DNA of 46,429 bases, filler included, from Jimgerdemannia flammicorona (lineage: Eukaryota), in the NCBI GenBank assembly GCA_003990765.1. It is 2 parts of 2 records of this genome, joined end to end, with 100 filler letters (N's around TTAATTAATTAA, not from the genome) between each part and the next. Parts side by side here need not be neighbours in the genome. Positions count along the whole stretch, not along the records: positions 23,268 to 46,429 come from RBNJ01001143.1; 1 more part is not named here. One strand, 5' to 3'. The translations under genes were made by a program, and so were the position numbers. This document shows, piece after piece, positions 1 to 46,429 of this stretch (position 1 is its first letter; every line of letters starts with the position of its first letter). The notes under the pieces were generated by a model. It was not told the origin of the DNA. It searched no databases and was given only the letters and a program-made list of their open reading frames with translations.

Positions 1-3000
1 CTACCAAACTGCGATGTCGACCCCCTTGAGGACCCCAACCCACCCACCATCTAGTCAGCAGATCCCCAAACAGCCCCTCCCACCTTAATACCTTCTCTCG
101 CAGCCCCAACTGCTGCCCCTCCTCAAATACAAAAAACCAATGTCCCGCCAGTCCCACCCATACTGCTAATACCCACCCTACAGTGAGCCAACTATCCCCC
201 GCTCCACCCATAAGCTGAGATCTCAAGTCCACCCAGTGACCCCCCTCCCCCCCCAGCCTCTTCCCCACACCCAGTCTATCTCCTATTTCAGCCCAAAATT
301 CCCCCAAAACCTCACACTCTCCCAGCCAATATTCTGGCATCTGTACATGACCCTCAGCTCACCCAACATCATAACACTCCTCACAGTCAAATTGTCCACC
401 CTCGACCAAATGCCCCATATGGAAATTCAGCATGACATTCCTCCACAACATTCTCCACCATACCACCCAGTACTTGGGAGGAAGCCACCTCCATACCTCT
501 GCACTCCAAGACCAGATACCTGCCCAGTCCCACTCCTCGCCGATCCCTGCTGCCTGTCAGCCACTCGGCCAAAGATCCTGGCCAAACCCCTGCTGATACT
601 CAATATCGAACATAGCCAGTGGAGCACCCCCCTGGAGCAGTCTATCCCAATGCCACATATTAGGCCCCCACACCACCTCCCCCTCATTGCCTTGCCAGCA
701 CAGACCAATTCGGTGTGCTCTATCAGCCACTCCCCACCAAAATCCCTTAAACCACAGTCTCTGAATTCCATTCAATCCCACCAAAGAGAGCAGATCACCA
801 GAGGACTCTTGAGGAGATGTTCGCATCTCCCACACCTTCTGTAGCAGAGGCACCCAACCTCCTCCCTGCAGTTCTACTGCTCTCTTCAACCACCACACTT
901 GCAAGCAGTGTAGCCTCTTAGAGAAGTCCACCAGGCCAAGACCTCCCCTGACTACTGGTCTTGTAAGAGTATCCCAACTGACCTGGGATCTCCTCCCCAC
1001 CCAAATCCAATCCCTAGCAATCTTCGTCAGCTTCTTCACTATCCATACTAGGAAGTCGAGGTGATATGCCACATACCACAACTTGTGGAACCAATATACA
1101 TTCAGGATTGACACCTGCCCTGCTAGAGAGATATGGTGGCCTCCCCAACATCGAAGGGCCTCCCCCCAAATATTCACCCTAGTCTCCCACCACACTCATG
1201 GCAAGACAGAACCATATACAGAGAGGAAGATGTCCAGATACTGCACTACCTCACCAGTAGGGACAATTGTTCCAATGATGTCCCCACCTACTAACCCATT
1301 TCCTAAAACCATTGTCTCATACTTATGCTAGTTGAGCTTTGCCCCTGAGTGAGCCTCATACCATTCTACAGTCTCCTGAAGTGCCTCTACATCTGCCACA
1401 GACCCAAGGACAACCACCATATTATCTGCAAAGGCCCCCACCTTCCACACTATACCATATAAAGAGAGCCCTGCCATCTTCTAGCGAATCCAATCCATCA
1501 ACGGCTCCAGTGAAAGGGCATAGAGAATAGGGGACAGAGGGTCCCCCTGAGGAACTCCTCTTCCCAAGGGAAATGCCCTCTCACAGTGACCATTACACAT
1601 CAGAGCTGCCCGACTGCCAGCCAGCAGACTTAACATAGAGGTCCTAAATCTTATGGGCACACCAATTCGGTCCAATACCTTGCCCAGCCACACCCACTGT
1701 ACATGGTCGTAGGCCTTCTCCTGGTCCAAAAAGACCAATCTTCCATCCAGTCCACAGGCCTGGGCCCCTTCAATGACACCATGAACCCAGGCAGTCCTAT
1801 CTCTAATAAGTCTGCCCCCAATAAAGCCCTGCTGCTCCTCTCCCAGCACCTGTTGGGCAACTTTCTGCAGCCTTGCAACAATCACCTTAGTCACCATCTT
1901 CCTGTCTATATCCAGAAGCATGATCGGTCTCCAGTTCTTCCAATCTTCCCTCCTCCCCTTGTCTTTGTACAACAAGGCCACCAGCCCTAGATCCTGCTCT
2001 CCAACCCACTCACCACTCTGAAGGACATGGTCACAGAGAGCAGTCATCTCACCCACTACCCTGGGGACATTTACCATCTTCTTCCAGAAGTCCCATGGTA
2101 ATCCATCCTCCCCTGGTGCTGTCCCAAGTTTAGTTGCTGCCAGGATACTCTGGATCTCCTCTCTCTGCACCAGTAAGACCAAGTCTCCCAGACCAGCTAC
2201 TTGCAGCAGCTCCCACTCTTTAAGTGTATCTGCAATTCCTGCCTCATCAGCACCCCCTTCTCCCTCACTCCACAAACCCTGCCATCTCTCCTTCAGAACC
2301 CTTAAGATTCATTGTGTGCTATGTACTATGTCCCCATCATCATCCAGGACCCTATTCCACCAATGTCGCACCCTCTTAGCTTTGAGAAGTCTTGATAGGT
2401 ACCGAGTAGGCCACTCCCCCTCCTCAAGCCCCTGCCACCATAGCCTGGCAGCCATACCCTGCATTCATACCTCCTCCTCTTCCCTCAGCACCTGTTGTAG
2501 TTCCACTATCTCCAATTTCGCCCTCTCTATCCTCTAATCCTCCACCTCCACAATAGTGAGCAAATCTGCCCACTCCATTTGTAGTCTCCTCAGCCTGCTG
2601 GAAGCACACCTCGTGTGCCTCCTCCTCTGCCTCCCGGCCTCTCTTCCAGCCCCTCCCCAATAAACCCTCACAGCCTCTTTCAATCTCATCCAGTAGACTG
2701 CTACAGGCAAACCCTCACACCTCCAGATCAAAACTTTTGCCTGAATGTCCTCCTCCCACAATTCCCACAACCCCTTCTCAGCCAGCAGAGAGGAGTTAAG
2801 GCACCAATGTCTGGGTCCATCTCCACTCCCCCCAAACTGCCCCTGCCCCAATCGTCCCCAGTAATCAGACCATGGGCACCACTCTACTTCCAATGCCTTC
2901 CAAACATCCGAACCCCAGCACTCTGCCATCAGAATCCAGTCAATCCTTGTGCCCAAGCCATTCATCCAATGTGTGTAAACCCTGGCATCACCCCATCTTG

Positions 3001-3541
3001 TTCTGCCCATATCCCCCAAGGAGCTCAATGTCTCCACCTCCTCCTATGTATCCAGACCTTCACTTCTACCCCCAGCATTCCTTCCTCCATCAGTTCTGTC
3101 CAGATGCTGATCCCGAACCATATTGAAGTCCCCACTGAGAACATCAACCCCTTCCTCCAAGAGAATACCCTCCTCCAGCAGCCCCCTAATCCATGCAGTC
3201 CTCTCACCCCTAACTGCAGGGCAGTAGCAAGAGCCCACCCTCACCGATTCCCACCCTGGTCGATGCCACTCTCCCCAGACCAAGCGATCGCCCCAGCTCC
3301 TGATACCCCCCAAGTCTCCTCGGCCCCTCCTCACCAGAATCGCTACCTTTCCAAACCAAGCAGTAGCCCCACCCCATTCCCTAGTCCACTCAACCCGATT
3401 GTCCTCATCCTCACACTGAACATCCTGTAGTAAAAAGAGATCAGCCTCCAATCCCTTGAGCCAAGTAAAAATGTTCTTATGCTGCTCAGAGCCCCTTAAC
3501 CCATTCACATTCAAGGAGAAAATATTGGTTGTACTGTTCAT
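1..3541 (-). pseudogene. LINE A ORF2 (APE endonuclease, reverse transcriptase, C-terminal zinc knuckle), broken by stops and frameshifts
   Basis: SLNVNGL, LLQDV, GDFN, RIDW, SD(H>Y) for EN; APGEDG, NWRPIMLL, QQGF, FLDQEKAYD, GVPQGDPLSPILY, AFAD(D>N), YLDI, GGLGL for RT; CEEC...PEYWLGEC near 320-390. Confidence 0.93.
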
Positions 3542-3572
3542 AAAGAATAAGATTATATCATGGCCCCATCCT

Positions 3573-5609
3573 CTACAAGTCTGCATTCTGCTCCTCCTGC
3601 ACCAAGTCCAAGTCCCGTTCAGCAGCTAGTTCCCTCTCCCCAGCTTCCCTTGCTGCCAATACTCCAAGAAGTTCTACTATTGCCCCATCTTCACGCTCCT
3701 CAAAGTCCTCCTGATACTCCAGACAGGCCTCCTGCCAGAGCCTCAGGCCATGACACTCTGCCCAACAGTATGTCGCCCGCTCACCAGCAACCACCCCCAA
3801 CTCTGCCTTCCTCATCTCATCAACCTCATATCCCTCCTCCTCCAGGAAAATTGCCAAAATCTCCACCTTCAGTGCCTCCACCATTCCATCTCTGTACAGA
3901 ATCCATGCCTAATGCTCCTCAGGCATTGCCTGCAGGTCCACTTCCCCCAAAGCCTCTGCTGCAAGATTATCCATCACCTTATGCATCCACAACAAGTTCC
4001 CCACCTCCTTCCCTCCTGGAGTCCCTGGCCACCCTGCATCCAACATCATGGTGTCTGCTCCTATGCTAGTAGCCTCATCCCACTCCTCCTCAGGGACATC
4101 CACCAGCTCATCCTCACCAACTGCCACTACCTGACCCCCTTGCGCCACATCAGGGACCCCAAAGCACACCTGCTAGGCCCCCTGCATCCATGTATCCTCC
4201 ATCACCCCTCTCTTTCCAATTGGGCCCCTCCTGATAAGAGAGGGGAGGGTGGCATCCAACTCTGGCTCCCATACTTCGAAGGTACCATCAGTAAATGGGT
4301 CCTTGTCCAGCTTCTTCCCAGCCTCTGCCTCCTTCGTCTCTACCTCCTCTCCTTCTGTACCAGCCCAGACACTGGCCTTAATGCCTCCAGACTCCTCAGC
4401 TCCAACTGATGTCTTCTTCACCCCTCTCGTCATACTGGCCAACAGCTCCCTCTGCCTCTTGCATCTCTAGGCCCGCTCCCACTGCTTCTTGTCCATATGA
4501 ATACGCTTCCCGCCCACAACCTCCAGATGCGTCAACTCCTCATACAGTTTCCAGGCCTTCACCCTCCTCTCCACAGCACCACACAACTCCTCCAGCACCT
4601 CCAACAAGTCCTCCTCCTCCTCCTCACTCCCTTTCACCCTCAATACCTTGCAGACAATGGCCCCCCACATCAGCACCGAAGGCCAGTCACTTGTTTTCCC
4701 TGTGGCCTCCTTCTCTGCCAACCGAATCCTGACATCGACATCACCTGTCCTGATTGTGGTCCCCTCCTACACCTGAAAGCCTATGTCCACCACATCACCA
4801 TACTCTACCATCACCTCCTCTACCCTCCTCCTAGTCTCCTCCTTAGTCACCATGGGCACTCCCCTCACCAGCAGCTGCACCACCCTGGGGTCCCACCTCA
4901 AACATCGCATCATGGGGACCACCACCTCCCCAACTGCCACTCCAGCCCTCAGCATCTCTTCCAGTGGACCTGCTTCCTCAAAACCCACCTCAACCCCCTC
5001 CAAGCCCTTCAAGAACTTCACTGAGGCTGCCCCCACCACTTGCTTTGAAATCAGCCCCAGAACCATCCTTGCCATTACTGCCAAGCCTCGGAAGTACAAG
5101 GTAGCCACAAACTCCAAAATTGACTTCTTGAGTAATGGAGCCACTGCCAGTCCCATTACACCATCTGCCAGGTCCCCCTTCCACATCGGGAACCCCTGCC
5201 CCCCCTGGCCATCAGCTGTCACATCTCTTTTTTTTTCCTCCTGATTCACCATCACGCTACCATCAGCAGTCCCACCACCACCCTCAGCAGCTACTCCACT
5301 TCCCCCCCCTCCCACCGATGAAGGCCTAGCTCCCCCAGCATTCCCAGTCTTCTTCTTCCCCTTCCCTCCCATCTGTCCATTATGATCTCCCATCGGCCAG
5401 CCTCCTGTCCTCAGCGTGTCCACAAAGCTCCTTCCCTGCTGCCCTCCAGCCCTCCCCCCAATGCTACTTCCACTACCTGAGCTGCTCTGCCCACCTGAGC
5501 TACTGAAAGACCTCATCCCCAGTCCATACCCTCTTCCAACATGCTGCCAGTTGAAGGCCCCAGGTCCACCTGACCTAGTACATGCGTCGGCTTGCTTGCT
5601 AGTCAACAT
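3573..5609 (-). pseudogene. LINE A ORF1 (about 680 codons, Gly-rich N-terminus, acidic C-terminus), disrupted
   Basis: ORF-track fragments 4767-5720, 4467-4721, 4173-4442, 3909-4169 and 3573-3884 are collinear and homologous to ORF1 of copies C and D (for example LKKS..EF, WDPRVVQL, EYGD/E.VD.GF). Confidence 0.85.
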
Positions 5610-5694
5610 TGCCTTAGTATCTTTCTCCAATAAACACCTTGAAAGTGTGTTGTAAAAGTGTGTATAATGCGAATTGTAGCAGAGAAAGATATCA

Positions 5695-8600
5695 CATCTC
5701 ATCTGTTCACGCTCTTTCATTCTATTACATTTATCTTCTTCTCTCCAACCTCTACTCTCTTAAATATAACTATACTATTAATCACTATAGTCTATCTATA
5801 ACTCTTCTTACAAATTCTTCTCACTAGATACTAATAGTAATTACTCAGAGGGCTCCACCCCCTCTACCAACTAGATAGAATATTCACTATCAGTCTCTTT
5901 CTATCTCACTACTTTTCCCCCCAAAGCCATCTATTTTCTATTTTTAAATATATATAGTCAATATTAAGTCAATCTTATTTATATTGCTAATATTCACTTA
6001 ATAGTAAGCTATTTATTACTAATATATCCTATCAATTTCTCTTTTAAATCTCTCTATCTACTTTCTACTTCAACAATATTCTATCTCACTCTTAGATAGT
6101 CTCTAACCTTTCTCTAAAAGTCACTAAGTACCTTGTACTCTTCAAGCTAATATTTAGATATTTGTATAAACTCTTCTTTCTGCTCTATATTAAAGCAGTT
6201 CTCATACTCAAAACTTCTATCTATTATTAAATATTTTGACTAAAAGTTCAATATAATATTTCTCCTCAAGATATACTATCATATTACTCAGAACTTAGAA
6301 GGAAGTCATCACTATATCTCAGTACTCTAGCTTAGTCTCAAGTCTTATTAACTCTCACTAACTACTAATCTACTGACTACAAATTCTGATCTACTCTCTG
6401 CTGGTACTTGATATCTTCACTAATATTAAAGTCTACTAGCAGTATATTACTCAATAGGAGTCTATCCTACCTTCATATTTCAGAACTCTATTGGACCTTA
6501 TCCTCATCACTATAATAGTGTAAGCTAATATAGTGAGCACCTTTTACTACTCTTTACTAGAATCTCTAGTATTATGAGTACTTACTACTTCTCAATCCAA
6601 CTATAAATAGTAAGTTACCAGAGAAGTCTCTAGGGAAAAACCTTACCTTCTAGATCCTTTACATTAATAGTATCTATCTATCTCTCTGTAGCTCAATAGC
6701 TCTCTTCAATCACTAAGTCCTAAGGCTATATAATCTCTTTAGAAAGTCTACCAGACTGATCCCTCTCCTGCCCATCAGAGTTGCTAAGATCTCCTAGATT
6801 ATCTGACTCCTTCTCCTGATCCAAATTCAGTCCTTAGCTATCTTTAACAATCTCTTCACCACCTATATAGAAAAATTCAAGTAGTATACTAGATATCAGA
6901 GCTTTAGCAGCCAGTAGATATGTATTCAGAATCAATATCTATCTAGTAAGAGAAATATAGTATCTCTTCTAACTCTGAAGAATATTCCCCCATTCTACTA
7001 TCTTTCTTTTCTACTATATATCAATAGAAAGATACTCAGATAATATATATATCATCTCTTCTATAGGGACAATAGTTTCAAAAATATCTCCACCTACCAA
7101 ACCATTCTCTAGCACTATTGTCTCATACCAATCTATAGTCTCTCTTAGTATACCCACATTAGTAACAAAGCTAAGTCTAACTATTATATTATCTACAAAG
7201 ATCCCAATTTTTCAGACTACTCTTAGGACTGAAAGCTCTAATATCTTATAGTGAATCCTATCTATAAATAACTCCAATGACAGAATATATAAGATAGGAG
7301 ACAGGGGGTCTCTTTAGAGAACTTCTCTCTTTAATGAAAATATAGTATCTCATGATATTATATAAAATTACCACCTTACTATCCTCTAATAGACTAACTA
7401 TTAATACTTAGAACTAGTAAGAGATACTAATTCTCGTAAGTACTTTTTTTAGTCAGACTTATCAAATCTGATCATAGGCCTTTTTCTAATCTATAAAGAC
7501 CAATCTCTCATTCAGCCCACTAGCTCTTGCTTCCTCAATTATACTATATATCTAGACTGTCTCATCTCTAATCAGCTTACTACTAACAAAGCTCTATTTC
7601 TCAACTCCTAATATTTGTTAGGTCACTCTCTACAGCCTTATAATAATCACCTTAGTGACTAACTTCCTGTCTATATCTAGAAGTATAATCAGTCTCTAAT
7701 TCTTTCAATTTTCTCATCTGCTCTTATCTTTATATAATAGTGCTATCAGACTAAGGTTCTGCCCCCTGACCTACTCTCCAGTTATGAGAACAAAGCTGTA
7801 AAGTGCTATCATCTTCTTCAATACTCTCAGAACTCTTACTATCTTCTTCCAAAAGTCTTAGTATAGGTCATCCTCATCAGAAGTCATACTCAATTTTATA
7901 GTTAATAAGATATACTAAATTTCATTCTCTTGGACCAGCAAAATTAGATTCTCAAGATTATCAATCTATAGAGGATACCAATTCTTTAGAGAATGCTCAA
8001 TAGCTTTCTTATCTATACTCCCATCCTTCTTAATTTACAGATCTCTCTACTGATTCTTTAAAGAATCTAATATTTACTATGTTCTATTCACCAGAACACC
8101 TTTCTCATCCAATACTCTGTCTTACTGCTATCTCACTCTCTATATCTGAAGAAGTCTAGATAGATATCTAGTAGGCCTCTCATCCTTTTCAAGCCTCTAT
8201 CACTATAATTAAGCTATCATACTCTGAAACTCAAGCCTTCTCCTTCTCTCTCAATACTCTCTTTAACTCCTTTACCTCTATCTGAGCTTATTTCAATCTC
8301 TAATCAACTACTATCTCCTGGTCTAATATACTAGTCTATTTCAGTTGTAATCTCTCTAACTAATGAAAAGTCCACCTTATTCTCTATCTCTACTATATCT
8401 CTTAGAACCTGCCAGCCTCACTCTAGTATATCCTAGTAACCTTCTTCAACTTTATTTAATAGATCTCTACAGAGAACCTCTTATAATTCTAGTAGATAAT
8501 CTTTTATCCAATATCTCTCAAGCCTCCTATAACTCTAACTCTACTAGTAAAGAGAAATTGAAATACTAATATCCAGACCTATCTCTACTCTCTCTAAACT

Positions 8601-15036: not shown

Positions 15037-18000
15037 TCAACCAATGCCCCATGGACTCAACCCTCCCCCCTCAACCCTCCTCTGCCCGAGCACCACCCAA
15101 TCACCCACTACCCAAATCCACCCACCACTCTTCTGAGAGATGCACTGCACCAAACCCTGACGGTGTCCCCCACCCAGCCCCCAATCTTGCCACCAGCTAT
15201 TCAAAATGTCCAATAGCAACCACTCCCAATGTGCTACCTTGTCCACAACCCCAACTCTGCACCCTCCCTCAAAGACATAAACCCAATGCCCAGCCAACCC
15301 AACCCACATGGCCAAAGCCCAACCAAGGGTCAGCCATTTATCTCCAACTCCACCCACCAGTTGCTGGTAGAGCACACCCCATCTCCCCCCTCCCTTGCCC
15401 TCCAAGGCACCCATCCCTACCCTGTCCATAATATATCTCCAAAACTCCTCCAAAACCTTACACTCGCCAAGCCAATGTTCAGGTATTTGTACCACTCTCC
15501 CCTCCTGGTCAACATTGACACAATCCTCATACTCGAATATACCACTGTCTACTAAGTGTCCAGACCAATAGTTCAGCATCACATTCTGCCATAAGACCTA
15601 TCACCACACCACCCAGAACTTGGGGGGCAGCCACTGCCTCACCCTTTTGCTCCAAAGCCAGAGCCCATGCCAGTCCCACTCCTCACCAATTCCAACCCTC
15701 TGCCAGGCTTCAGGCCACAGGTCTCCACCTAGGCCTCACAGACACTCCAGACCCTCACCAAGCTGAAAGCTCTCCACCAGAACACCACCCAGCAGAAGCC
15801 TGTCCCACTGCCACATCCACGGTCCCCAATTCTCCTCAGCCTCATCACCTTGCCACCAAAGTCCAATTTTCTTAGCACCATCCACCACCCCCCACCAGAA
15901 GCCAGTAAACCGCATCCTCCTGCTCCCCTCCATGGCCACCATTGCTAACAGGTCACCTGAGTCACCATGTGGGGAGTACTGAACCTCCCACAACCTCTGC
16001 ATGAGTGGTACCCACTTCCGACCCTGAAGCTCACTTGCCCTTCGCAACCACTAAGCTCTCAGACATAGAAGCTGCTTAGTGAAGTCCACTAAGCCCAGCC
16101 CACCTCTTTCTAAGGGCAGTGTGAGAACCTCCCAACCAACCTGGCTGCACTGCCCTCCCCAGATCTATGATTGAGCCATCTTCAACAACCTCCTGACCAT
16201 CCAAGTTGGGAAATCCAAATGGTATCCCACATACTACAGCTTCGGCATCCAATACACATTCAGCACTATCACTCTTCTGACTAGGGACATAGGCCAGCCT
16301 CCCCAATGCAGCAGAACATTTCCCCACTCCAGAAGCTGACAGTCCCATCATGCCTGGGGAAGAAGAGACCTGAATACCGAGAAGTAGATCCCCAGATAAC
16401 GTACTGGTTCACCAGCCAGTACTACTGTCTCCATGACCTCGCCACCAACAATACCAGTGCCAAGCACCAGGGTCTTGCATTTGTGCCAGTTTAGCCTAGC
16501 ACCAGAACCCTGCTCATACCATTCCACAGACCTCTGTAACTCCCCCACATCCACCAAGGAGCCCAGCCTGACCACCATATCATCAGCAAAGGCCCCCACC
16601 TTCCAATTAATCTCTAAGATGTCCAAACCTCCAATCTGCCGCCAAATCCTGTCCAGTAGAGGCTCCAGGGAAAGGGCATACAATATGGGTGACAATAGGT
16701 CCCCTTGCGGTACCCCATGCCCCAGGGGAAAGGTCCTCCCCCTATGGCTATTGATGACCAATGCTGCCTGACTGTCCTCCAGGAGGCCGATCAAAGCTCT
16801 GCGAAACCCTGGGGAAATACCAATCCGTTTCAGCACTCCCTCCAACCATATCCTCCACACCCGATCATAAGCCTTCTCTTGAACCAGAAACACCAATCTA
16901 CCATCCACCTCTGTCACCCAGACACCTTCAATCATACCATGAACCCAAGCTGTCTCATCTTGAATCAATCAACCACTGACAAAACCATGCTGCTCCACAC
17001 CAAGCACCTGCTGAGCAATACCTTGCAGCCTCATCACCAAGATCTTTGTCACTAGTTTGTGGTCCATATCGAGAAGCATAATGGGCCGCTAGTTCTTCCA
17101 GTTCTCCCGCCACCCCTTATTCTTGTAGAGTAAGGATACTAGCCTTAATCGCTGTCCCCCAATCCAAGCACCAGACTGAAGAACTCCATTGCACATAGCA
17201 GCTATTTCCTCCAGCACCTCACCCACTCCAGCCATCTTCTGCCAAAAATTCCAGGGAAGGCCATCCTCTCCCAGGGCTGTCCCCTTACTCATTGAAGCCA
17301 CAACCCTGCAAATTTCCTTGCCAATCACCAGGTCCTCCAATGCCCCAAGTCCCAAGGCAGGGTTTGGGTGCCAATCCTCCAGCTGCCTTTCAACATCCAG
17401 AGCATCCATTCTGCCTTCCTTCTTACTCCATAGGTTCTCCTACCGAGTTCGCAATATGCCCAGAATTGCCGGAGTCCCCACCACCAGCTCACCATCCTCA
17501 TCCAGAACTCCCTCCCACTGCTGTTTCATATGTCATGCTTGTAACAACCATGACAAAAATTGAGTAGGCCTCTCCCCCTCCTCAAGCCCCTGCCACCATA
17601 GTTGGACCACTATTCCCTACATTGCCATCTCCTCCTCTCTTCACAACACTCCTTTAAGCTCCTCGACCTCCTGCCAGATTCTCACAATATGCCAATCAGA
17701 CACATCTCCATCATCCAGCACACCTGCCCATCTCTTCATGAGTGCAACCAGATGCTGTGAGGCCCACAGCACCCTCTGCCTCCACTGAGCACCCTTCCCT
17801 TTCCCTGCCTCCCTCCAATACCTCTGAGCATTCACCTTCAGACATCTCCAGCAGTTCTCAATCCCAAGGCCTCATTCCCACCACCTACTGATATTTCCCA
17901 CCACCTCCGTCTCCCAATCCTCCCATAACACCCTGTCCTCCAACAAGGAAGAATTTAGCCACCAATGTCCAGGCCCATCCTCCTTTCCCCTAAATCTCCC

Positions 18001-18699
18001 CCCTCCAAGCAGCCCCCAGTGATCAGACCACAGACACCATACCACTTCTAGCACCGACCAGACATCTACTCCCCAACACACTGCCATCAGAACCCAGTCA
18101 ATTCTGGAGCCCAGCCCTGCTGCCCAGTGAGTGTACACCCACCTCTCAGCCCAAAAATGTCTATCTGAGTCCACTAAAGAACACAACCTCTCAGTCTCCA
18201 GCCAATCTCCCAACCCACCACTTTTGCCCCACATGCCTCTCCCACTATCCATTCTATCTACCTTTTTATCCCATACCATGTTGAAGTCCCCCCCCATACA
18301 GTCCAACCCAATGCCTCCCAATACACCAGCCTTTTTCAACCCATGAATCCAATCAACTCACTCCCCTCTCTCAGCTGGGCAGTAACAAGACCCAACCATC
18401 AATGAGCCCCATCCAGGCCTCTTCTACCTTCCCCACACCACCCGAGACCTCCAATGTCCAATGTCCTCAATGTTCCCTATCCCTTTCCAAATAAGAATAC
18501 ACACTTTCCCCCTCCATACTGCTACACCCCCCCATTCCTTAGTTCAATCCTGGAAGTCCACATCTGCCTCATAATGAACATCCTGTAATAAGAAGAGGTC
18601 TGCATCCAGTCCCTTAAGCCATCCAAATATATACTTCCTCCTAGCTACCCCCTGTAACCCATTAATGTTCAACGAGAATATCTTAGTTGTATTGTTCAT
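15037..18699 (-). pseudogene. LINE D ORF2 (endonuclease and reverse transcriptase), disrupted
   Basis: Collinear fragments 18544-18729, 17872-18339, 17089-17409, 16348-16968, 15736-16047 and 15037-15582. Confidence 0.92.
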
Positions 18700-25001: not shown

Positions 25002-27021
25002 ATGACCTCCTCCTTTTCCGAAGAAGTACGCAAGCAGGTTGAGACCCAGCTCCATGGTGGTATTACAATCGTTGGTAGGTGCTCTTTTCTGACAACTGGC
25101 TCCTCTCCGTTGACCTGGAAGGAGTTATTGCTGTAAAGCATAGCATAGACTTTTGTGTCTCTCGTTGCATTTTAGTATCGTTTATCTGGCGTATGTTAAC
25201 GAATTTCGATTTGTGACTGCCTCCCTGCATACAGTCCTGGGAGCGTCGGGCGATCTAGCCAAGAAAAAAACCTTCCCCGCCCTGTTTGGTCTCTACCGCA
25301 ATGGCTTCTTCCCTCCCAAGACCCACATTGTCGGCTACGCCCGCACGAAGATGACCCACGAGGAGTATCACAAGCGGGTTTCGCAGTACATCAAGGTCCC
25401 CGAGGTCTTCCGCAAGCAGCTCAACGAGTTTCTCGCTATCAGCACCTATGTTGATGGACAGTACGACGAGGATGCTTCCTATCAGAACCTGAACAAGCAC
25501 ATCGAGAAGATCGAAAACGACTCCCATATTGCCGATGGCCACAAAAACAGATTGTTCTATATGGCACTGCCACCCTCCGTCTTCATCCCTGTCGCAAAAG
25601 GGCTCAAGAAGAACGTATACTCGAGGGGCTCCATCAATCGCGTGGTGGTCGAGAAGCCGTTTGGTATGGATCTTGATAGCTCTAGGCGTCTGGACAAAGA
25701 GCTCGGTGCCTTGTTCTCGGAGGACGAGGTGGGTATACAAAATATATTTGGCAATACGTAAATCTTGGGAATAGATATGATTCATATATTTCAATCTTAT
25801 TTACGCATCCGTACTTTTCAAATAGATCTATCGTATCGACCACTATCTCGGCAAGGAAATGGTCAAGAACATTATGACTCTGCGCTTCGCCAACGTCTTC
25901 TTCGGCTCCATTTGGAATGCGCAGCACATCGAAAACGTGCAGATTACCTTTAAGGAGCCTTTTGGTACCGAGGGTCGTGGCGGGTACTTTGACGAATTTG
26001 GCATCATCAGGGATGTCATCCAGAATCGTGAGTATCGGTCATGTTTGCAACTGGAATGAAACTCAAAATGGTCATCACAACTGGTGGATGAGCAAATATG
26101 CGGTATAATGTGTAACACAAATATTGTTCTGTCTTCATGAATCCTAGATTTGTTCCAAGTATTATCGTTGCTTGCCATGGAACGCCCAATCTCGATGAGC
26201 GCCGAGGCTATCCGCGACGAGAAGGTCAAAGTTCTGAGATGCATACCACCAATTGTTGTCAGTGATGCGTTGGTGGGACAGTATGGCAAGTCGGTGGACG
26301 GAACAAAGCCCGGTTACTTGGAGGATGATACATTAAAGAACAAGCAAAGTGTCACGCCAACATTTGCTACTTTGGTTGCTTGGATCAATAATGAGCGCTG
26401 GCAAGGTTAGTGTGACTTGTGGCCCTGATCGCGTTCATATTGCATGAGATGCGTCTGGTGTGAATTCAACCAAATCAAATTTCTGCACTTGTACAATAAA
26501 ACCTAGGCGTTCCCTTCATCCTCAAGGCTGGAAAAGCCCTCAACGAATCGAAGGTGGACGTTCGTATCCAATTCAAGAACGTCGCCGGTCAACTTTTCAA
26601 GGAGGTACCCCGCAATGAGCTCGTCATCCGCGTCCAGCCCAACGAGGCCGTCTACATGAAGTTCAACAACAAGCTTCCAGGCTTGTCCTTCCAGACAACC
26701 ATCTCCGAGCTTGACCTCAGCTACCACCGCCGCTACTCAGACCTGAGGATTCCCGACGCGTATGAGGCCCTGATCCTGGACGTCCTCCGCGGAGACCACT
26801 CCAACTTCGTCCGCAATGACGAGCTCGATGTTGCCTGGACTATTTTCACGCCCTTACTCCACGAACTCGAGACGTCAAAGGTCAAGCCCATCGAGTATGC
26901 ATACGGCTCCCGCGGCCCCAAGCAACTGGACGAGTTTGTGAAGCGGTACGGGTTCCGAAGGCATCAGGAACAGTACATTTGGCCAATTCAGAACGTCGAC
27001 GGGACTGGATCCCGGAAGTAA
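25002..27021 (+). CDS. G6PD: Glucose-6-phosphate 1-dehydrogenase, 5 exons (25002-25074, 25235-25728, 25826-26027, 26148-26405, 26507-27021)
   Basis: [62 protein letters not shown] introns join in frame. Confidence 0.98.
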
Positions 27022-29291: not shown

Positions 29292-30515
29292 TTATGCGCT
29301 CTGGTCGGTGACCATGGCAGTGGCCGCTGAGGAGACGGTATTCGTGGTCAGTCCGCGCAGCGAGATATCATACACGACCTCCTCAATCTTCTTGATGTCG
29401 TATTTGATGCCGTCAAACCTGGATTTCGAGAAGGTAGTGTTGAGGGATAATGAGGTCAATGCGCATGTAATGAATGCGCTAGAAATATCTCCATGGGCGG
29501 AGTACGTCTTACCGCTTCCTGAGCAAATCGTTCTTGAGATTCAGGAGTTGGAACCCGGAGCCCAGATCTTTGACAAATTTCGAGATGCGTAGAGGACGGG
29601 AATAGTCACCGGCGGTGACGGAGTTGACAGCCAAGCGGGACTGAGGGCAGTATCGAAGACGGTGGGGGGAGTTAGATCTACAAACAAGGTTCTGATGTGA
29701 AATGTTGGTAGAGGACAGACGTACCAGCTCGTTCGTCATACTGACGAAGCTGTGCAGCACATCCTCGATCGAGATGTGGAAATATTGAAGGTCATTGTTG
29801 ATGTTGACTTTGACTGCAAAAGGGTAAGGTATTGGTTAGGTTGGACGTTTTCCCAGTAGAAAATGTGTCGCTCATGTGGCATTTTCCAGTGACATCATGC
29901 CCACCTCCCAATATCTCCTCCAACTCGGCAATGGTTATGAGCCGTTCATATTGCAAGTAGGTGGTGAAGGTCGCGAGGAAACAGGCCTGCTGCACGGTTC
30001 GGTTCCAGAGGTCATTGTATCTAGTGGGGTAGAAAGGGGTAAGCAAACGCGCTGGGTAGGAAGTAGTAGTTAGCAAAATTTGGGAGACAAGACGGGCTCA
30101 TACTTATAAAACTGCTTTTCTGGTACAAGCGAGGCCAGTTTCGTCAAGTGGCCACGAGCGTCGACGAAATAGTGGAGTGCGTTGTCGCAGATAGCCGGCG
30201 CTGTGGCAGAACGTCAGGTTGACGAATTAGTGCCGAGCTTCCGCAAGGGCGGTGTATCCATTAAATTGCAAGATAATCATACTTTCAGACGAGGAGCTGG
30301 CGTGGACTTGGTTGAGAACGGCAGTGATAGCGCGACAGGTTCGGTCGAAATCTCGCACGGCTTGGCGGATCTCCTGTGGGGTTTGAAGCGGGTGGGTAAC
30401 AGGATAGGACACCATTGGCAAGTCAAGGGCAGAGGGAACTTACGTCTTTTATTTTTGCTTCGGAGTCCATGGATGTCTGTATTTTGTCGAAAAAGTTGAG
30501 ATCGACGGTGGTCAT
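29292..30515 (-). CDS. TSN: Translin, 7 exons
   Basis: Spliced translation MTTVDLNFF...EIRQAVRDFDRTCRAITAVLNQVH...ELSRLAVNSVTAGDYSRPLRISKFV...FQLLNLKNDLLRKRFDGIKYDIKKIEEVVYDISLRGL is the translin signature. Confidence 0.96.
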
Positions 30516-30613
30516 GTTTGTGGGGTGGAGGTAAAGAGAGACGAAGACGCGCCAGGCAATTTATTTGGATACAAAAATCCCCAGTCCCTTTGTCCCAACC
30601 CAACATTGAAATA
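30516..30613. promoter_or_regulatory. Putative bidirectional promoter region between translin and the TERB2-like gene (98 bp between start codons)
   Basis: Head-to-head ATGs at 30515 (-) and 30614 (+). Confidence 0.6.
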
Positions 30614-32204
30614 ATGTTCGCAAACCAACGCGCCTGGTTCAGCTCCTCTGTCCCAGACCTTCACAAGCTACTTTGGAGTATGCACCGTTTCCTTGATAGA
30701 AGCCTGAAGAATCGTTACAGCCTCAGATCCTAACCTCTCGGTCCACTCCGTCCGCCAAACTCAGCAAAGGAACAGGGTCAGCCGTCGGCGGACGCCCTCG
30801 ATCCGCAAGTCGATCCGCAAGTGAGATACTTCTTCAGTAATGACGTGAACGAACCTCATACTAAAAGGTTCGTGCAGAGAAAAGGCACTGGCGTATTTTG
30901 TTTCCAACTGTTCAAGTCATTGAGCTATGATACACAGACTCCTAGACAATACCAACAAGGTCGTCTTCATTTCGCAATGGATCCCCGATTCCGCCAAAGA
31001 CAAATTCCGGAAGCCACTCGGTCCTTACGTGTTGCAGGATCACAATACCCGTACGTTTTGATAATTTAACGTACGGTGCATAGAGTATTGGTTTTCTACT
31101 TGTGCGACGCCTTACGTGTCTATTCGCTAACAACTGATTTTTTTGTCTCTCATACCATCCTAATCTTTATCCCAGAGCCCTACAATCCACCTCTTTACAC
31201 CCCGCCTGCCACCGCTCTCTCGTCTCGCCGCACCAGAATGTCTCCTCCCGTCAATACCCCGTCACCTCGCCTCCCACACCACCAGTCCGTCGACCCAACC
31301 ACCGACCAATCACCTCCACCCACGGACAAGCTTAGCCACCACAATCGTGACGCCTTCGCCTCGCGGCTCCAAGGATCTACATCCACGTCCCCGATCGACA
31401 TCGGCGAGGCCATGGAAAGTTCTTCGCGCGGCGAACGCAGGACAAGAGAGGAAGTGGATGCGGGTGCGAACGAGCCGAGCGACGGAAATGAATGGCCGCC
31501 AACTCCGTCCAAGAGGGCCAGGAAGCTGCCGAGGAGTTTCGAGGGGCAGAATATCGAGAGCCGGCAGAGGTGAGCCACGTTTGGGGTGGAAGCCGCTCCA
31601 ATCAGAGTGGCTTCCCTAGGCTATTGTAGTAATTTACAGAGTAACTCAATCGAACTATTCTCTTTTGCTTGCACATTTTGCCTTAGACTTCTAGATGCGC
31701 TAACGTTGCAATACCAATGCATTGGCTTTCGGTTCTAGAATTCTAGGCACGACCGTAGCAACCGAGGATGAGGGATACTTCCAGGACGTCCAATCTCCGA
31801 GGTACGCTTTTCGGTTTCGTAACTCTTCTCAACTTTAGGGAAGATGTATGGTAAAGTCGCGGGCCTTCTTTCCTTTCATCCGTTGAAAATTGAGATGTGA
31901 TTTCTGATACTTCTGCCCTTCGTTAAACGAAACTCGCAGTCCCGAACTCGCCGATCCGGCCCCTATCTGCGACACGGACCACGATCTCTTACTACCGGAC
32001 CTCTCGCCTGACGACACCCGTGAGACCATCACAGTCGCCGAGCTGTTCTCGCGCGTACGTGCCATCGCCGGCGAGGACCTGCGGACCGACGAGGAGGTGC
32101 ACGAGTGGCTGCTGCGCGACGTGCGGGACTTCACTCCCGGGAAGAACGGGTGCATCGTGACGTTGAATCCGGCGTGGAAAGCGAAGAGGCGGCAATGCTC
32201 ATGA
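30614..32204 (+). CDS. TERB2: TERB2-like meiotic telomere bouquet protein, 6 exons (30614-30677, 30765-30867, 30938-31050, 31176-31569, 31739-31801, 31940-32204), 333 aa
   Basis: All introns GT-AG and phase-compatible; exons total 1002 nt. N-terminus MFANQRAWFSSSVPDLHKLLWTKEQG...RYFFSNDVNEPHTKRLL...KVVFISQWI...PLGPYVL and C-terminal LRDVRDFTPGKNGCIV match human TERB2 as I recall it (MFQGQRGWFCGSV...FW..EGG...FLFSCDASHPDTLR...VF...LGHFIL; LGELHDFIPGTSGY). Confidence 0.8.
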
Positions 32205-32675
32205 GGAAGATTGGAAGCCGAGATGATGAGCAAGAGTATGTGATCTGTAAGCAGACTGGTGGTCGGACTGGAGATGTTGATTAAGAGATGGTATGGTTGG
32301 TTGCGGCGATAGATAGGTACAAACTTAATGCCGATTTCTTGCTTCGCTTTTGTATAGGTCGTTGCGTTCGCTTGCATCACATTATCGATTTATCTATATA
32401 CTCTACTTGATATTGTGTCTTTGTCCGCCTCATTTTCGGCGTTAATCTCACATAGCTACAGTATTTGAAATACTACTACTCACCGATATCTACTTGTACA
32501 TTCTGTATTTTCGTCATCTTTGAGTTCGATAGGCAATTCGCATGTACATACTTTGCATAGTTTCATCGCATGGCTATACCACTTGCGCTAAGCTTCTTTC
32601 CATTGATGGTCGCTTCAGCATGTATTGATGGATTGATAATTATAACTGGATTTTGCGTCGGGGTATTCGGCCCCA

Positions 32676-34719: not shown

Positions 34720-35849
34720 TCAGAACTTCACCACCCGCTTCTTCTTGCCCACTGCCTTCCTCACCCTCGACACTGCAACCTTCTCCTCCTCCCCGGCCCT
34801 CATCTTCTCCGACACGAAGATATGGAAATCATCGTCATCGGCCCCCTGCACGAGATCGATCTTGCCCAAAACAATTGTCCCCACCTCCTCCTTTGTCGCC
34901 CTGCAGTCCTTAGCCAGATGGTCAACCTTGCCGCAGAATCGACAGGAACCGCCCTTGGGGTAAAGGCCCTTCTCGTTCTGCGGGCACGCGGAAGAGAGGT
35001 GGCCCTGCGTGTTGCAGATGAAGCATTTGGCGAATTGATATTGGTTGCCTGTGTGATTCGAATGAATGAATGGAAGGATGTGAGCATTGATGGCGCCAGA
35101 TGGCAATGGTGACGACGACAATGAAGATTGAAACCCTACCGCCTTTGGAAAGTTTCTTGCACTCTTTCAGGGTGTGTTCTGTGGAGCCACAATTGAAGCA
35201 GATACCAACACCTTTTCCCTTGGCCTCGGGACATTCGTTGACACTATGGCCTGATTTGCGGCACGAGAAACATATCTGAGAGAGATACGTCCAATCTTAG
35301 TTAATGCAATTGATACAAGTGTCGAAATGCTGCAAAAGAAAACACATATGTTTACTTGAGACAACAAGCGCTTACCGTGCTGTTCTTCTTCAATTTCACG
35401 CGCTTTTCACGCCGCTTGGCAGCCTTTTCTTCTTGGGAAATCTTTTTTGCGGTTTCTGACACTGATTTTGTGCCTACATTGAGAATTCTTTGCAATCAAG
35501 ACTGCTGTTTATGAACTTTTTGCTGTACCTAAAAGGGAGGAGGCTGCCCACCTTTCGTTTCGCTTGCGTCAGAATTCTCGTTATTAGCATCGCTGAGCAA
35601 CATTTGCTTCTTCTTTTGAGCGGCAATGTTTTTCCTCTGCCGCTTGCTCAGTTTGGTTCGCTCGCCCTCTGCTGTTGCGTTGTTCTCGCCGTCTTTGGCG
35701 GGAGTTTGTTCGGTCGTTTCTTCGCGGTGGCGTTTCTTGCCGTTGAGGGTTGGTTTTGAGTCAGCATCATTCAACTTGTTCAGAGGGGTGACTTGGAAGC
35801 CTACTGGGTCCTCGTGGGTCTTTCTGGAGAGCTTTGTGTAGCGAGTCAT
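34720..35849 (-). CDS. ZCCHC9: ZCCHC9-like protein with four CCHC zinc knuckles, 4 exons
   Basis: MTRYTK start; CFSCRKSGHSVNEC, CFNCGSTEHTLKEC, CFICNTQGHLSSAC, GLYPKGGSCRFCGKVDHLAKDC; ends KKKRVVKF. Confidence 0.82.
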
Positions 35850-35977: not shown

Positions 35978-37741
35978 ATGGACTATCAGAGGCAACTCAT
36001 GGCTGAGCTAATGGCTCAGTACGATCTGGATGATACCAAGAACTTTTGGGACGACGACGTAAGTATTTCTTTCCCAACATGCGATCCCAAACTCGTTCAC
36101 GGACCCTGACTTGTCGCGTGAATCCATATAGGTGTGCAAAAACTATCTTGTCGCATATTGCCCGAGTCAGCTTTTCACAAACACAAAGTCGGACCTTGGT
36201 AAGCTTATATATAATATAATGTGAAGGTCTGCATGACCATGTGATGAATGTCGCTTATATAACCTATGGCCTATTTCTCGTCAACATTCAAAGGTCCCTG
36301 CACCAAGATACACAACGACAAACTACGAGACAAGTACCGCAATACCCCAGACAAGGAGTCTCGCTATCCGTATGAGGTCGCCTTTGTCGACTATATCACT
36401 TCGTTGGTCACCGATCTGGATCACAAAATAAGGAGAAACAAAGAGAGGTTGGATATTCAACCCGATGCGAAGGTAGTACTTTTTTGCGATGTGATGGTGG
36501 GTGTTATGATGCTTTGGAACCTTGTGTATTTTGACGTATAGTGTTTTTTCTGCTTGATGCAGACACTGAATCCTGGAAGGGACGAGAGAGAAGAGAGCAT
36601 AGTGTTGCTGGACGAGAGAATAAAGGAAATGCTCGCCAAGGTGAGTGAAACTTAACTATGCATTCCGGAAATCATGTATTCCGGAAATCATGCATTCCGG
36701 AAGTTATTGGTATCAAGCGCATAATCTGAACTTTGCCATGTCCATTCGCGTACTTCTTTCAGATTGAGGGTGCTGGGGAGGAAGGTCGCGTACAAGAAGC
36801 TGCCGAGCTAACGGAGAAGGTCGAAAGGCTGCAGCACGAACTAACTCTCATGAAAAATGTAAGTACACTCCGCTCAATATGCTTGGCAGTGATCTATCCG
36901 ACCCCCCAAAAACCCCCATCTCCTTCATTCATACCCTGAGAAAGACAGACGTACAGAGATAGGTGGTAGAATATTGTTTGATAGCGCCGTGAGGATAATA
37001 GCATCACCAAGCTTGCTATGCTCCTGAAGACGGACTTATGGATGGTGTCAAAAGTGGTTCAACGTTTTGAGCATGATACGCAATTAGAGCCGATCCAGTC
37101 GTCTACAAACACCGCAGTTGTCCATCGCCTTCGCCGGTACCTACATTTCCCCAGACTTCTTCAGTTATCCCTCTTACTAACCGTCCATCTTCCGAATCGT
37201 CATATCAACCATTGGTGCCGTCTCCTCATATTCGTTCGTGACACTTTACAGAATGACGGCATAAACCCGATACTCAAGCAGGATAAAAAAATGGAGGTGA
37301 GTTTATTCACTCTTTTTGTTCGGATACGCTCTTTCAAGAATCAGAATATGCCCTGGTGTTTTTAGTATCATGTACCCGATTTCGATTGACTCAGACCTAT
37401 TATTATTTTTCTCTGAATGCAGGTGTGCCAAACGTGCAGCGCCTTCCTGGTGACCAACGACACCTCTAACCGTCTGGACGCCCACTTGCAGGGTAAGCTG
37501 CACACAGGATACGAGAAGATCCGCGAGAGTTTGCAGGATTACAGGGTGGGTAAATCCAATCTTTGACGTTTTGTTATGTTAGATCGCTATAGAACCCATA
37601 TACTCATACCATTTTATCCTAAAGAAAAAACGCGCTGAACGTGGCGAATGGCGCGACCACCGCCAACATAGGGACAGACGTGAACACTTTGGATCTCGCC
37701 GTGACCGTGAGCGTGAGCGAGACCGTGAGCGAGATCGTGAG

Positions 37742-43600: not shown

Positions 43601-43811
43601 CTGATCCAATGGTAGTGATTTCAGTTATAGAAGTTTTCCTTCTATTGGTTCTTCATTGGGCCAGTTCATTGACACAAGAGAAGTAATCATTGATCATTTG
43701 GAAAGAGTATATTCCAATGCCATGAGGGCATTGGCCACTTGGTACATATCCATCTTCGATTTTCTTATAGAATTGTTCTTCTTTATTCATAGTAGGTTGG
43801 GCTGGAGCCTT

Positions 43812-44222
43812 GTTTGATGAACCAAATCCTTTGGATCCTTGGATGGTAAGTAGTAGTTCAGGGACTTCCTTGACTGTCAGAGTTGACTTGATTTTTTCGA
43901 ATAGTATCTGGGCAATACAGAATCCAATAGGGATCTTGAAGGGTGTCCAACTGTGGTTTCAGATGAGGACAATAATTTTGCCTGTGTAATCTTCATCAAT
44001 GACTCCTCCTTCTACTGAGAGTCCTTTCAGTGCTAGGCTGCTGCGACAGTATATTCTTCCAATATATCCTTCAGGGATTTGGATGCTGATTTCTGTATAG
44101 ACTTGCTTGACTTCTCAGTTGGAAACTGTAGCTTCTTCAGCTGCATACAGGTCATATCCAGCTGCTTTTTGACTTCCTTTGGTTGGGGTCTTGGCAGTTT
44201 GCCTTAACTTGACAAAGTCTAG
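43812..44222 (-). pseudogene. Retroelement-encoded trimeric-type dUTPase domain (two TGA stops)
   Basis: Manual translation: KAAGYDLYA, GRIYCRSSLA, GGVIDEDYTGKI, IAQILF, QGSKGFGSS, matching motifs 1-5. Confidence 0.93.
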
Positions 44223-45100
44223 TGTTCTGGTGGTCAGGTTGTTGAGGTGGTACAGAGTGGTAACAGTTACTCATATTGCTGTTCAGGGTTTTCAGTTAGG
44301 GCAGGCACTGGCCATGTGTTCTGTTTTTTGGCAATAGAAGTATGCTCTGCTTTTTCGAAGTTTGTTCCTTTCTCCTTCAGTGAGTTTCTTGAAGATACTT
44401 GGCTGGGTGGGTTCATGATTTCTGGGTGTCCATGAGGTGGATGTGGAGGGAGCTTGGGATGTTTCATGCTTGGGTTCTTCTTTCTTGGTCCAAGTCTTTT
44501 CCTTATTGTTGAACTGTCTTTGGGGCAGAATTGGTCCAGCTGTTAGGATTTGCTTGACCATAGTCTTGATTCTTGCCAGATACCATTGTTGGTGATCACA
44601 ACCAACTAGGTGGCCTTGTTCTTAGATTTTTCTAGTAAGCCATTCAGACAGTACATCAAATAAATGGTCTGCTCTTGTACCATTTCATGCTTCATCATTG
44701 GCAATATATCCTAGGCCAACAGTGTTCAGGAGTGACTCGAGTTTTGTATAGAAGGTTTTGAATTCTTCTTTGCTATGTACATCAAATTTGAGATTGCAGA
44801 GTTTTACTCAAGATTCAGCGATCATAGTTTTACTGTGGTATTGAGCAATTATGAGTTGTTTGAGTTCAGGGGCTATAGGATAGGCTCTATATCCTGGGGC
44901 ATTATTTGCTATATTCTGAGTAACTACTACAGGTCGGGTGTCTCATATGAGGAGTTTTCAGGAAGGGTTCGCCACCATTCTTTGGCAGGTCCTTGGAAGA
45001 ATATAACAACTTGGCAGACATAGGCTATGGTGATAGCAAAGAGTTGTTCTAGAGTGTGGTCTTGATTGTTTGTCAGAATGTGGTCAGCAACTCACTCATT

Positions 45101-46429
45101 GGCATTCTCCTTGGAGAGAGGAGTCCCTCAAGGGGACCTGCTGTCCTCTATCCTTTATGCACTCTCCTTGGAACCTTTGATGAACAGGATCCATAAGAGG
45201 GTGACTAGACTTTCTGTATATGATGTGGGGTGGAAGGTAGGGGCCTTTGCAGATGATATGGTAGTTGGACTTGGATCAGTAGCAGATATAGAGACTCTTC
45301 AGGAAACAGTAGAGTGGTATGAGGCACACTCTGGAGCAAAGCTCAACTGGCATAAGTGTGAGATGATGGTGCTGGGGAATGGGCTAGTGGGAGGAGATGT
45401 CATTGGAACAATTGTCCCCACAGGAGAGGTGGTGCAGTACCTAGAAATCTTCCTCTCTGTAAATGGATCAGTCCTACCACAGATATGGTGGGAGAGGAGG
45501 GTGGACATTTGGGGAGAGGCTCTAAAAGGTTGGGGGGGTCGTCACATCTCCCTGGCAGAGAGGGTGGCAATTCTGAATATATACTGGTTCCTCAAGCTGT
45601 GGTATATGGTATATCATTTAGACTTTCCCGCTTGGGTGGTGAAGAGGCTGATGAAACTGGCTAGGGATTGGATTTAGGCTGGTAGAAGGGCCCAGATCAG
45701 TTAGGATACCCTTGTCAAGCCAGTGCTTAGGGGAGGCCTGGGCCTTGTTGATTTCCCTAAGTGTCTATACTGTCTGCAAGCTTGGTGGTTGAGAAGGGCT
45801 GTTGATCTACAGGGTGGAGGTTGGGTGCCATTGATGAAGAAGGTGTGGGAGATGAGAGTCTCCCCCCGGGGGTCCACAGGGGATCTACTCTCTTTGGTGG
45901 GTCTGAATGGAAGCCGACAGCTATGGTATAAGGGCTTCTGGTGGAGAGTGGTCGATAGAGCATACCGGATAGGCCTGTACTGGCATGGAAATGAGGGGGA
46001 GGAGGTATGGGGTCCAGCTATATGGCAATGGGACTGTCTGCTTCTAGGGGGGGACTTTTGGATAGCTGTAGGGGACCGACTTGGGGTTGAAAGGAGACCA
46101 GATGGAGAGAGAGGTCGCTGGGAAGATCTGGAATCTAGACTTGTGAGAGGTGTCAGCAATAGGTGGCTTACTGTAGGGTGGGTTGTGGCAGTGTGGGTGG
46201 GGTTGGCTGGACATTGACTCTTTGTTTTTGAGGAGGGGTGACAGATAGGAATATAAGAGAAGTTATTGAGATGGAAGGAGTTGGTGGCAGATTTGCTGAC
46301 AGGGTGGTGGATTGGGTGGGGACCACAAGGTAGGCAACATCGCTGTCTGGTAGAAGGGATCTGTGAGCAGAGTGGTGGGCAGGTGGAGATAGTGTTTGAT
46401 AAAGTGGTCTTTCATCATAAGAAGATAGG
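45101..46429 (+). mobile_element. LINE copy E, 5'-truncated within RT, interrupting gypsy gag; runs off the window
   Basis: GVPQGDLLSSILY, AFADDM, KLNWHK, GGLGL; closely similar to copies A and C; gypsy gag sequence stops at about 45100. Confidence 0.9.

Follow-up and report, generated by a model that had tools for sequence, protein, structure and literature searches.

A probable TERB2-family gene with both terminal modules in the fungus Jimgerdemannia flammicorona

The window analysed here is a 46,429-nucleotide stretch of DNA from the fungus Jimgerdemannia flammicorona (Endogonales, Mucoromycota). Its plus strand carries at 30614-32204 a gene whose six exons join in phase to give 1002 nt encoding a 333-residue protein. 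We consider this protein to be best explained as the J. flammicorona member of the TERB2 family, a reading to which we assign a probability of about 0.8, with two modules separated by a fast-evolving disordered linker and a role as an adaptor proposed by analogy. The closest known system is mammalian TERB2 (Pfam PF15101; human and mouse proteins; structures 6GNX and 6GNY), for which the TERB1-TERB2 and TERB2-MAJIN complexes have been described (PMC6361898).

Translation begins at the ATG at 30614, the first in-frame ATG downstream of a stop codon at 30497-30499. Exon 1 (30614-30677; all exons are on the plus strand) encodes residues 1-22, with the start codon and an N-terminus of the form M-F-x-x-Q-R-x-W-F, and exon 2 (30765-30867) encodes residues 22-56, including a Y-F-F-S-N block. 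Exon 3 (30938-31050) aligns to the W-I-x-D-S and P-L-G-x-Y blocks of proteins from the fungal order Kickxellales, which are described below. A linker rich in Pro, Ser, Thr and Arg is encoded by exon 4 (31176-31569; residues 94-225) and its acidic part by exon 5 (31739-31801; residues 225-246), while exon 6 (31940-32204) provides residues 246-333, which hold the C-terminal module, and the stop codon. All five of the introns, of 87, 70, 125, 169 and 138 nt, have GT..AG borders.

Three sequencing runs (X1, X2 and X3) overlapped the window, and their contigs were compared with it over 30300-32600. The RNA label of X1 and X2 is a guess only; since the joints in their contigs remove introns, these contigs derive from spliced RNA. 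All five joints were present in contigs of both X1 and X2, at positions identical to those of the predicted exon model. These include the joint 30677>30765 between exons 1 and 2, the joints on both the 5' and the 3' side of exon 2, and those that border exons 3 and 5. A single 294-nt X1 contig spanned exons 1, 2 and 3. The joint of intron 3 was additionally found in X3; this run covers little of the stretch, with 95-99% likeness, and was used solely as a third witness for this intron. The preliminary description of the locus, made from the sequence alone, had proposed six phase-compatible exons encoding 333 residues, and the transcript contigs of two runs bear out that model at each of its five junctions. 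The gene is real, spliced and expressed. Two alternative joints were also seen at low depth in X2. One (30863>30996) drops the final part of exon 2 together with the opening part of exon 3, and the other (31569>31698) is a GT..TG skip that replaces intron 4 and brings in 13 extra letters. These may represent minor isoforms, assembly noise or a paralogue.

The gene is annotated in two J. flammicorona assemblies, in two public records that belong to one 90% cluster. The first, P0001 (281 aa), starts inside exon 3, and in the second, P0002 (296 aa), exon 1 is connected to a position within exon 3, so that exon 2 is missing from both. Both records bear out introns 3-5 of the six-exon model, and P0001 ends in a stretch with 100% identity to the exon 6 translation; the 5' end of the model is matched by neither. 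No joint among the X1, X2 and X3 contigs supported the exon-2 skip of P0002. A practical outcome of this work is that both public gene models are seen to be wrong at the 5' end.

The assignment to the TERB2 family was reached through a family of proteins from Kickxellales, which belong to another fungal phylum than J. flammicorona. A phmmer search of 1,835,955,588 proteins with P0002, at an expectation value (E) of 0.001 or less, returned four proteins, namely its own cluster and three Coemansia proteins of 180-225 aa (E 1.6e-5 to 2.8e-4). Identity to these closest relatives was about 33-37%. A profile made from the Coemansia matches retrieved 30 proteins, all from Kickxellales (27 Coemansia, 1 Martensiomyces, 1 Linderina and 1 Kickxella), and 27 of these, with three marked as partial left out, formed alignment A3. 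We built a hidden Markov model (HMM) from A3 and scored the spliced protein against it, with 2000 shuffled sequences and the reversed sequence as decoys. The spliced 333-residue protein scored 90.7 bits (E 9e-30 for one comparison), in two matches: residues 1-118, aligned colinearly, with a domain score of 80.6 bits, and residues 294-318, with a domain score of 8.0 bits (E 1.8e-4 for one comparison). The best of the 2001 decoys reached 7.5 bits, and the resemblance of the spliced protein to the Kickxellales family is more than chance. P0002 and P0001 scored 52.7 and 46.5 bits, respectively, against the same HMM; inclusion of exon 2 thus raises the score by about 38 bits, which validates this exon independently of the RNA.

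These Kickxellales proteins, which go by the names 'hypothetical' or 'BRCT domain-containing', are the nearest relatives of the J. flammicorona protein and share its two modules, with residues of the A-W-F, W-I-x-D-S, P-x-G-x-Y and D-F-T-P blocks invariant across the family and the J. flammicorona protein. They differ in being shorter (180-266 aa, versus 333 aa) and in ending with F-V-A-Y-K-I-P-K, where the J. flammicorona protein has a K-A-K-R-R patch. A further difference is that a PF15101 tag had already been precomputed for 22 of the 30, whereas neither J. flammicorona record has one.

The relationship of the Kickxellales family to TERB2 was evident from several comparisons. In Pfam scans, 26 of the 27 proteins in A3 matched TERB2 at E<=0.01 and 21 reached the 27-bit cut-off of the family, the highest score being 37.1 bits (E 4.1e-9). 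In 10 of the 27 a single stretch aligned to positions 1-205 of the 207-position profile. Two N-terminally truncated records, P0045 (E 0.0073) and P0047 (E 0.072), matched only positions 141-205, and the best profile stretch for P0029 was 123-205, from which it follows that the TERB2 profile, which derives from metazoan sequences, detects the N-terminal domain and the C-terminal region each on its own. When the Kickxellales protein P0004 was used in a language-model feature search, clusters of chordate TERB2 took ranks 1 and 2 (0.93; 192 and 191 of 256 features shared). Rank 3 in that search (0.92; 186 shared features) went to 52 Basidiomycota proteins that form an unnamed cluster, are about 260 aa long and carry the name 'BRCT domain-containing protein'. 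We note this cluster as a lead only; it may be a TERB2-like family in Dikarya.

At the level of sequence, these comparisons demonstrate homology between the J. flammicorona protein and a Kickxellales family that Pfam places in TERB2. The earlier claim that the protein is homologous to TERB2 and keeps the order of its two modules is in this way supported through an intermediate family (90.7 bits for the spliced protein against it; 21 of its 27 members above the Pfam cut-off). The accompanying caveat that fungal members might already sit in databases proved apt, as most of the Kickxellales proteins had been tagged with PF15101 automatically, and databases can thus be said to hint already at fungal TERB2.

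The order of parts in the J. flammicorona protein is an N-terminal domain of about 95 residues that starts at residue 1, a linker, a D-F-x-P-G peptide and a basic patch. The protein shows the N-terminal strings that the preliminary description had listed, and its linker and its D-V-R-D-F-T-P-G-K-N-G motif likewise agree with that description. Close to where the N-terminal domain ends, Y-V-L-Q-D (residues 86-90; 31026-31040, +) stands at the place of the metazoan [F/Y]xLxP motif, which da Cruz et al. 2020 (PMC7227075) report at residues 86-90 of human and mouse TERB2 and in all taxa. The Y-V-L at residues 86-88 fits this numbering, so that an aromatic-x-Leu near the end of the domain is found, the Pro of the motif aside.

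In the C-terminal module, D-F-T-P-G (residues 309-313; 32127-32141, +) is the apparent counterpart of D191-F192-x-P194 of human TERB2, and the putative MAJIN-contact residues D309, F310 and P312 are all present. Human residues were mapped here through published residue numbers and the coverage of the Pfam profile, not through alignment to the human sequence. In the human complex, D191 is salt-bridged to R14 of MAJIN and a wedge is made up of F192, P194 and Y199 (Dunce et al. 2018, PMC6297230), and the F192R change (F188R in mouse) abolishes both MAJIN binding and fertility (Wang et al. 2019, PMC6361898). The human MAJIN-binding motif given in the preliminary description agrees with the published numbering of D191, F192 and P194. 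Conservation of the motif among relatives was also found: its D, F and P do not vary among the 27 Kickxellales proteins of A3 or in a further alignment, A4, and the J. flammicorona protein has the same three residues. A basic patch, K-A-K-R-R (residues 326-330; 32178-32192, +), lies near the C-terminus and has an unaligned likeness to the patch at residues 214-220 of human TERB2, which is reported to be required for DNA binding (PMC6297230).

The J. flammicorona and mammalian proteins thus have in common a small size, an N-terminal domain at residue 1, a linker, a D-F-x-P peptide, a terminal basic patch, an aromatic-x-Leu at residues 86-88 and the lack of a membrane segment. They differ in that the J. 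flammicorona protein, at 333 aa and with about 180 aa in its linker, is longer than the human 220-aa constructs used in PMC6297230, in two of the motif residues, and in that similarity between them is detectable only through the fungal intermediate family.

Direct searches with the J. flammicorona sequences gave weak but specific matches. In Pfam scans of the six exon translations at E<=10, a match was obtained for exon 1 alone, to TERB2 positions 1-20 (E 0.13). TERB2 was also the sole Pfam match of P0002, which lacks exon 2 (residues 2-25 to positions 1-24, E 0.017); P0001 had no match at E<=10. Word-based protein searches with exon 6 and with P0001 returned only their own cluster.

Several observations weigh against assignment to TERB2. 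Five of the six exon translations, that of exon 6 included, had no Pfam match at E<=10, and the P0002 score of 15.5 bits on TERB2 is below the 27-bit cut-off. Sequence searches of solved structures with P0001, exon 1, P0002 and the Kickxellales profile returned no TERB2 chain, and P0002 yielded no usable match when its language-model features were searched. The structure matches of that search were BRCT-type clusters with template modelling (TM) scores of about 0.2 and at most 0.25, and an AlphaFold model of the Kickxellales protein P0004, made with 27 sequences, had a mean predicted local distance difference test (pLDDT) score of 43.5, which leaves the fold unconfirmed. No further relative from Mucoromycota was found in the word-based searches or in the phmmer search, and two metagenome scans (90 pattern stretches with A4 and 47 with A3) yielded none that was confirmed. 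At the level of residues, the Pro of [F/Y]xLxP is Asp in the J. flammicorona protein, and the position of human Y199, which is Phe in Kickxellales, is Cys. The matches that the solved-structure searches did return, a Forkhead protein (E 0.06, to a Pro-rich stretch) and one low-complexity match, were rejected.

Variation among the contigs gives an approximate view of the constraint on the protein. Of 32 substitutions listed for the variant contigs, 15 are synonymous (236 sites) and 17 are non-synonymous (763 sites). The resulting ratio of non-synonymous to synonymous polymorphism per site (pN/pS) of about 0.35 is indicative only, as the variants pool alleles, strains or close species of the three runs. 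Thirteen of the 17 amino-acid-changing variants fall within the exon 4 linker. The three coding indels (12, 3 and 33 nt) all preserve the reading frame, and none of the three non-coding ones (1, 11 and 4 nt) is of a length that would do so. The gene is under purifying selection. One of the coding differences concerns a 12-nt tandem duplication in exon 2 (30800-30823, +) that encodes DPQV-DPQV: one copy is absent from an X2 contig, in which 12 nt are left out at 30798, and the duplication is a 4-residue insertion at the same place relative to the Kickxellales profile.

The linker (residues 96-275, about 180 aa) comprises 14% Pro, 12% Ser, 9% Thr and 9% Arg, and its exon 4 part is probably disordered. 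It holds 10 of the 11 Ser/Thr-Pro sites of the protein, a T-P-S-K site and, within exon 4, a K-R-A-R-K basic patch (31511-31525, +). Two 281-nt contigs of X2 cover 31276-31556 in the exon 4 linker, one identical to the window; in the other, 16 differences (5.7%) suggest that this sample contains another allele, nucleus or paralogue.

If the protein is a TERB2-family adaptor, its parts could be given roles on the model of TERB2 in mouse and human. A partner bound to telomeres, such as TERB1, would be docked by the N-terminal domain. The C-terminal D-F-x-P peptide would wrap onto a partner anchored in the inner nuclear membrane, such as MAJIN, inserting into its sheet and extending it by a strand. 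The basic tail may contact DNA, and the linker may be regulated by phosphorylation and serve in nuclear import. Because the J. flammicorona protein has no membrane segment, a partner would be needed for tethering to the envelope, and a MAJIN-like one is expected mainly because the putative MAJIN-contact residues are invariant.

This expectation has to be weighed against the possibility that the TERB2 homology is genuine but the partners differ: in fungi that lack MAJIN and TERB1, the two modules would bind other proteins, for example a telomere protein of the Rap1/Taz1 type and a membrane protein of the Bqt4/SUN type, or that it has a non-meiotic role. We regard this alternative as a serious one, although short of even odds. 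No MAJIN or TERB1 candidate turned up: the window open reading frames (ORFs) of at least 90 aa showed neither family, and no genome-wide search aimed at either was made. The Cys at the position of human Y199 is also in keeping with a different partner, the transcript contigs come from samples without a stated stage, and the tethers of yeasts are described in the papers found as unrelated proteins. Against this stands the invariance of D, F and P in the MAJIN-contact motif, which spans all 27 Kickxellales proteins and J. flammicorona and would be difficult to account for if the pocket it binds were not conserved.

A different kind of explanation is that the protein is a generic BRCT-domain adaptor, acting for example in the DNA-damage response, whose likeness to TERB2 is at the level of the fold only. 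The BRCT-type structure clusters found for P0002 point in this direction, as do sub-threshold BRCT_2 matches in 11 of 24 Kickxellales proteins (E 0.006-0.09), which cover almost all of the 86-position model, and the name 'BRCT domain-containing protein' that one source gives to some of them. However, the best of these BRCT_2 scores, 17.3 bits, lies below the gathering cut-off of 27.3 bits, and TERB2 exceeded BRCT_2 by 10 to 20 bits in every Kickxellales protein scanned. The TERB2 match begins at residue 1 in protein and profile alike, the C-terminal part matches the TERB2 profile independently in P0045, P0047 and P0029, and the top two clusters in the P0004 feature search were chordate TERB2. 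Neither P0001 nor P0002 nor any exon matched BRCT (PF16589 BRCT_2 or PF00533) at E<=10. We therefore consider a generic BRCT adaptor unlikely.

A BRCT-like fold of the TERB2 N-terminal domain would, in addition, be compatible with membership of the TERB2 family. The N-terminal domain of the Kickxellales proteins P0023-P0038 shows an end-to-end, sub-threshold alignment to BRCT_2 (positions 1-85 of 86), and on the strength of these alignments we suggest a divergent fold of BRCT type for the N-terminal domain of TERB2. In the main text of PMC6361898 the word BRCT is absent.

Recent horizontal transfer from an animal, or contaminating animal DNA, would suit the metazoan range given for the family in the papers found but is very improbable, as the closest relatives are fungal (about 33-37% identity), the gene has five short introns of fungal type and is annotated in two J. 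flammicorona assemblies, and it has a promoter region in common with a Translin-family gene in a window that also holds glucose-6-phosphate dehydrogenase and LUC7 genes.

The Translin-family gene (29512-30511, -) lies head-to-head with the TERB2-like gene and was recognised from two exon ORFs that matched PF01997 (E 7.5e-20 and 5.3e-8). Its transcript contig has a minus-strand intron at 30373-30442 and ends at 30511, and the TERB2-like contigs start at 30584-30600, which indicates a common promoter region of about 70-100 bp. Elsewhere in the window are a glucose-6-phosphate dehydrogenase gene with both domains (25144-27018, +), a LUC7 N-terminus (36263-36538, +), a zinc-knuckle protein gene (34723-35296, -) and a dUTPase fragment (43656-43958, -). 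Fragments of long interspersed nuclear element (LINE)-type retroelements, with several copies of RVT_1 and Exo_endo_phos ORFs, occur at 1484-5759, 16351-18357 and 45066-45674, which fits the repeat-rich J. flammicorona genome reported in PMC10386755.

With regard to the literature, PMC7227075, which is the sole evolutionary study that was found, dates TERB1-TERB2-MAJIN to the metazoan ancestor and finds homologues 'mainly in metazoans', and reviews of 2022 and 2026 present the complex as conserved in metazoans and unrelated to the yeast adaptors. The statement, made at the outset, that the complex is generally described as metazoan therefore still agrees with the papers found. No fungal TERB2 or MAJIN was reported in the papers that literature searches for one returned, judged by titles and the starts of abstracts. 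The job proposed here by analogy is performed in yeasts by Bqt1/Bqt2 of Schizosaccharomyces pombe and Ndj1 of Saccharomyces cerevisiae, meiosis-specific adaptors between telomere proteins and the SUN complex that, according to the papers found, resemble TERB1/2-MAJIN little in sequence. No Bqt or Ndj1 family was returned when P0002 was scanned against Pfam at E<=10, although the proteins were not compared sequence to sequence.

Taken on sequence evidence, the present results support a range for the TERB2 family that would extend to two fungal phyla, beyond its published range. An origin that predates the split between animals and fungi, as put forward in the preliminary description, is plausible given the presence of the family in two fungal phyla. 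More tentatively, and at less than an even chance in our estimation, zygomycete fungi (Endogonales, Kickxellales and possibly some Basidiomycota) may keep a complete meiotic telomere tether of the TERB1-TERB2-MAJIN type. If this is true, the animal complex would be older than the animal-fungal split, and Bqt1/2 and Ndj1 of the model yeasts would be later replacements. The replacement of an older system by the yeast bouquet proteins thereby becomes directly testable, and the finding indicates where fungal MAJIN-like and TERB1-like partners could be sought.

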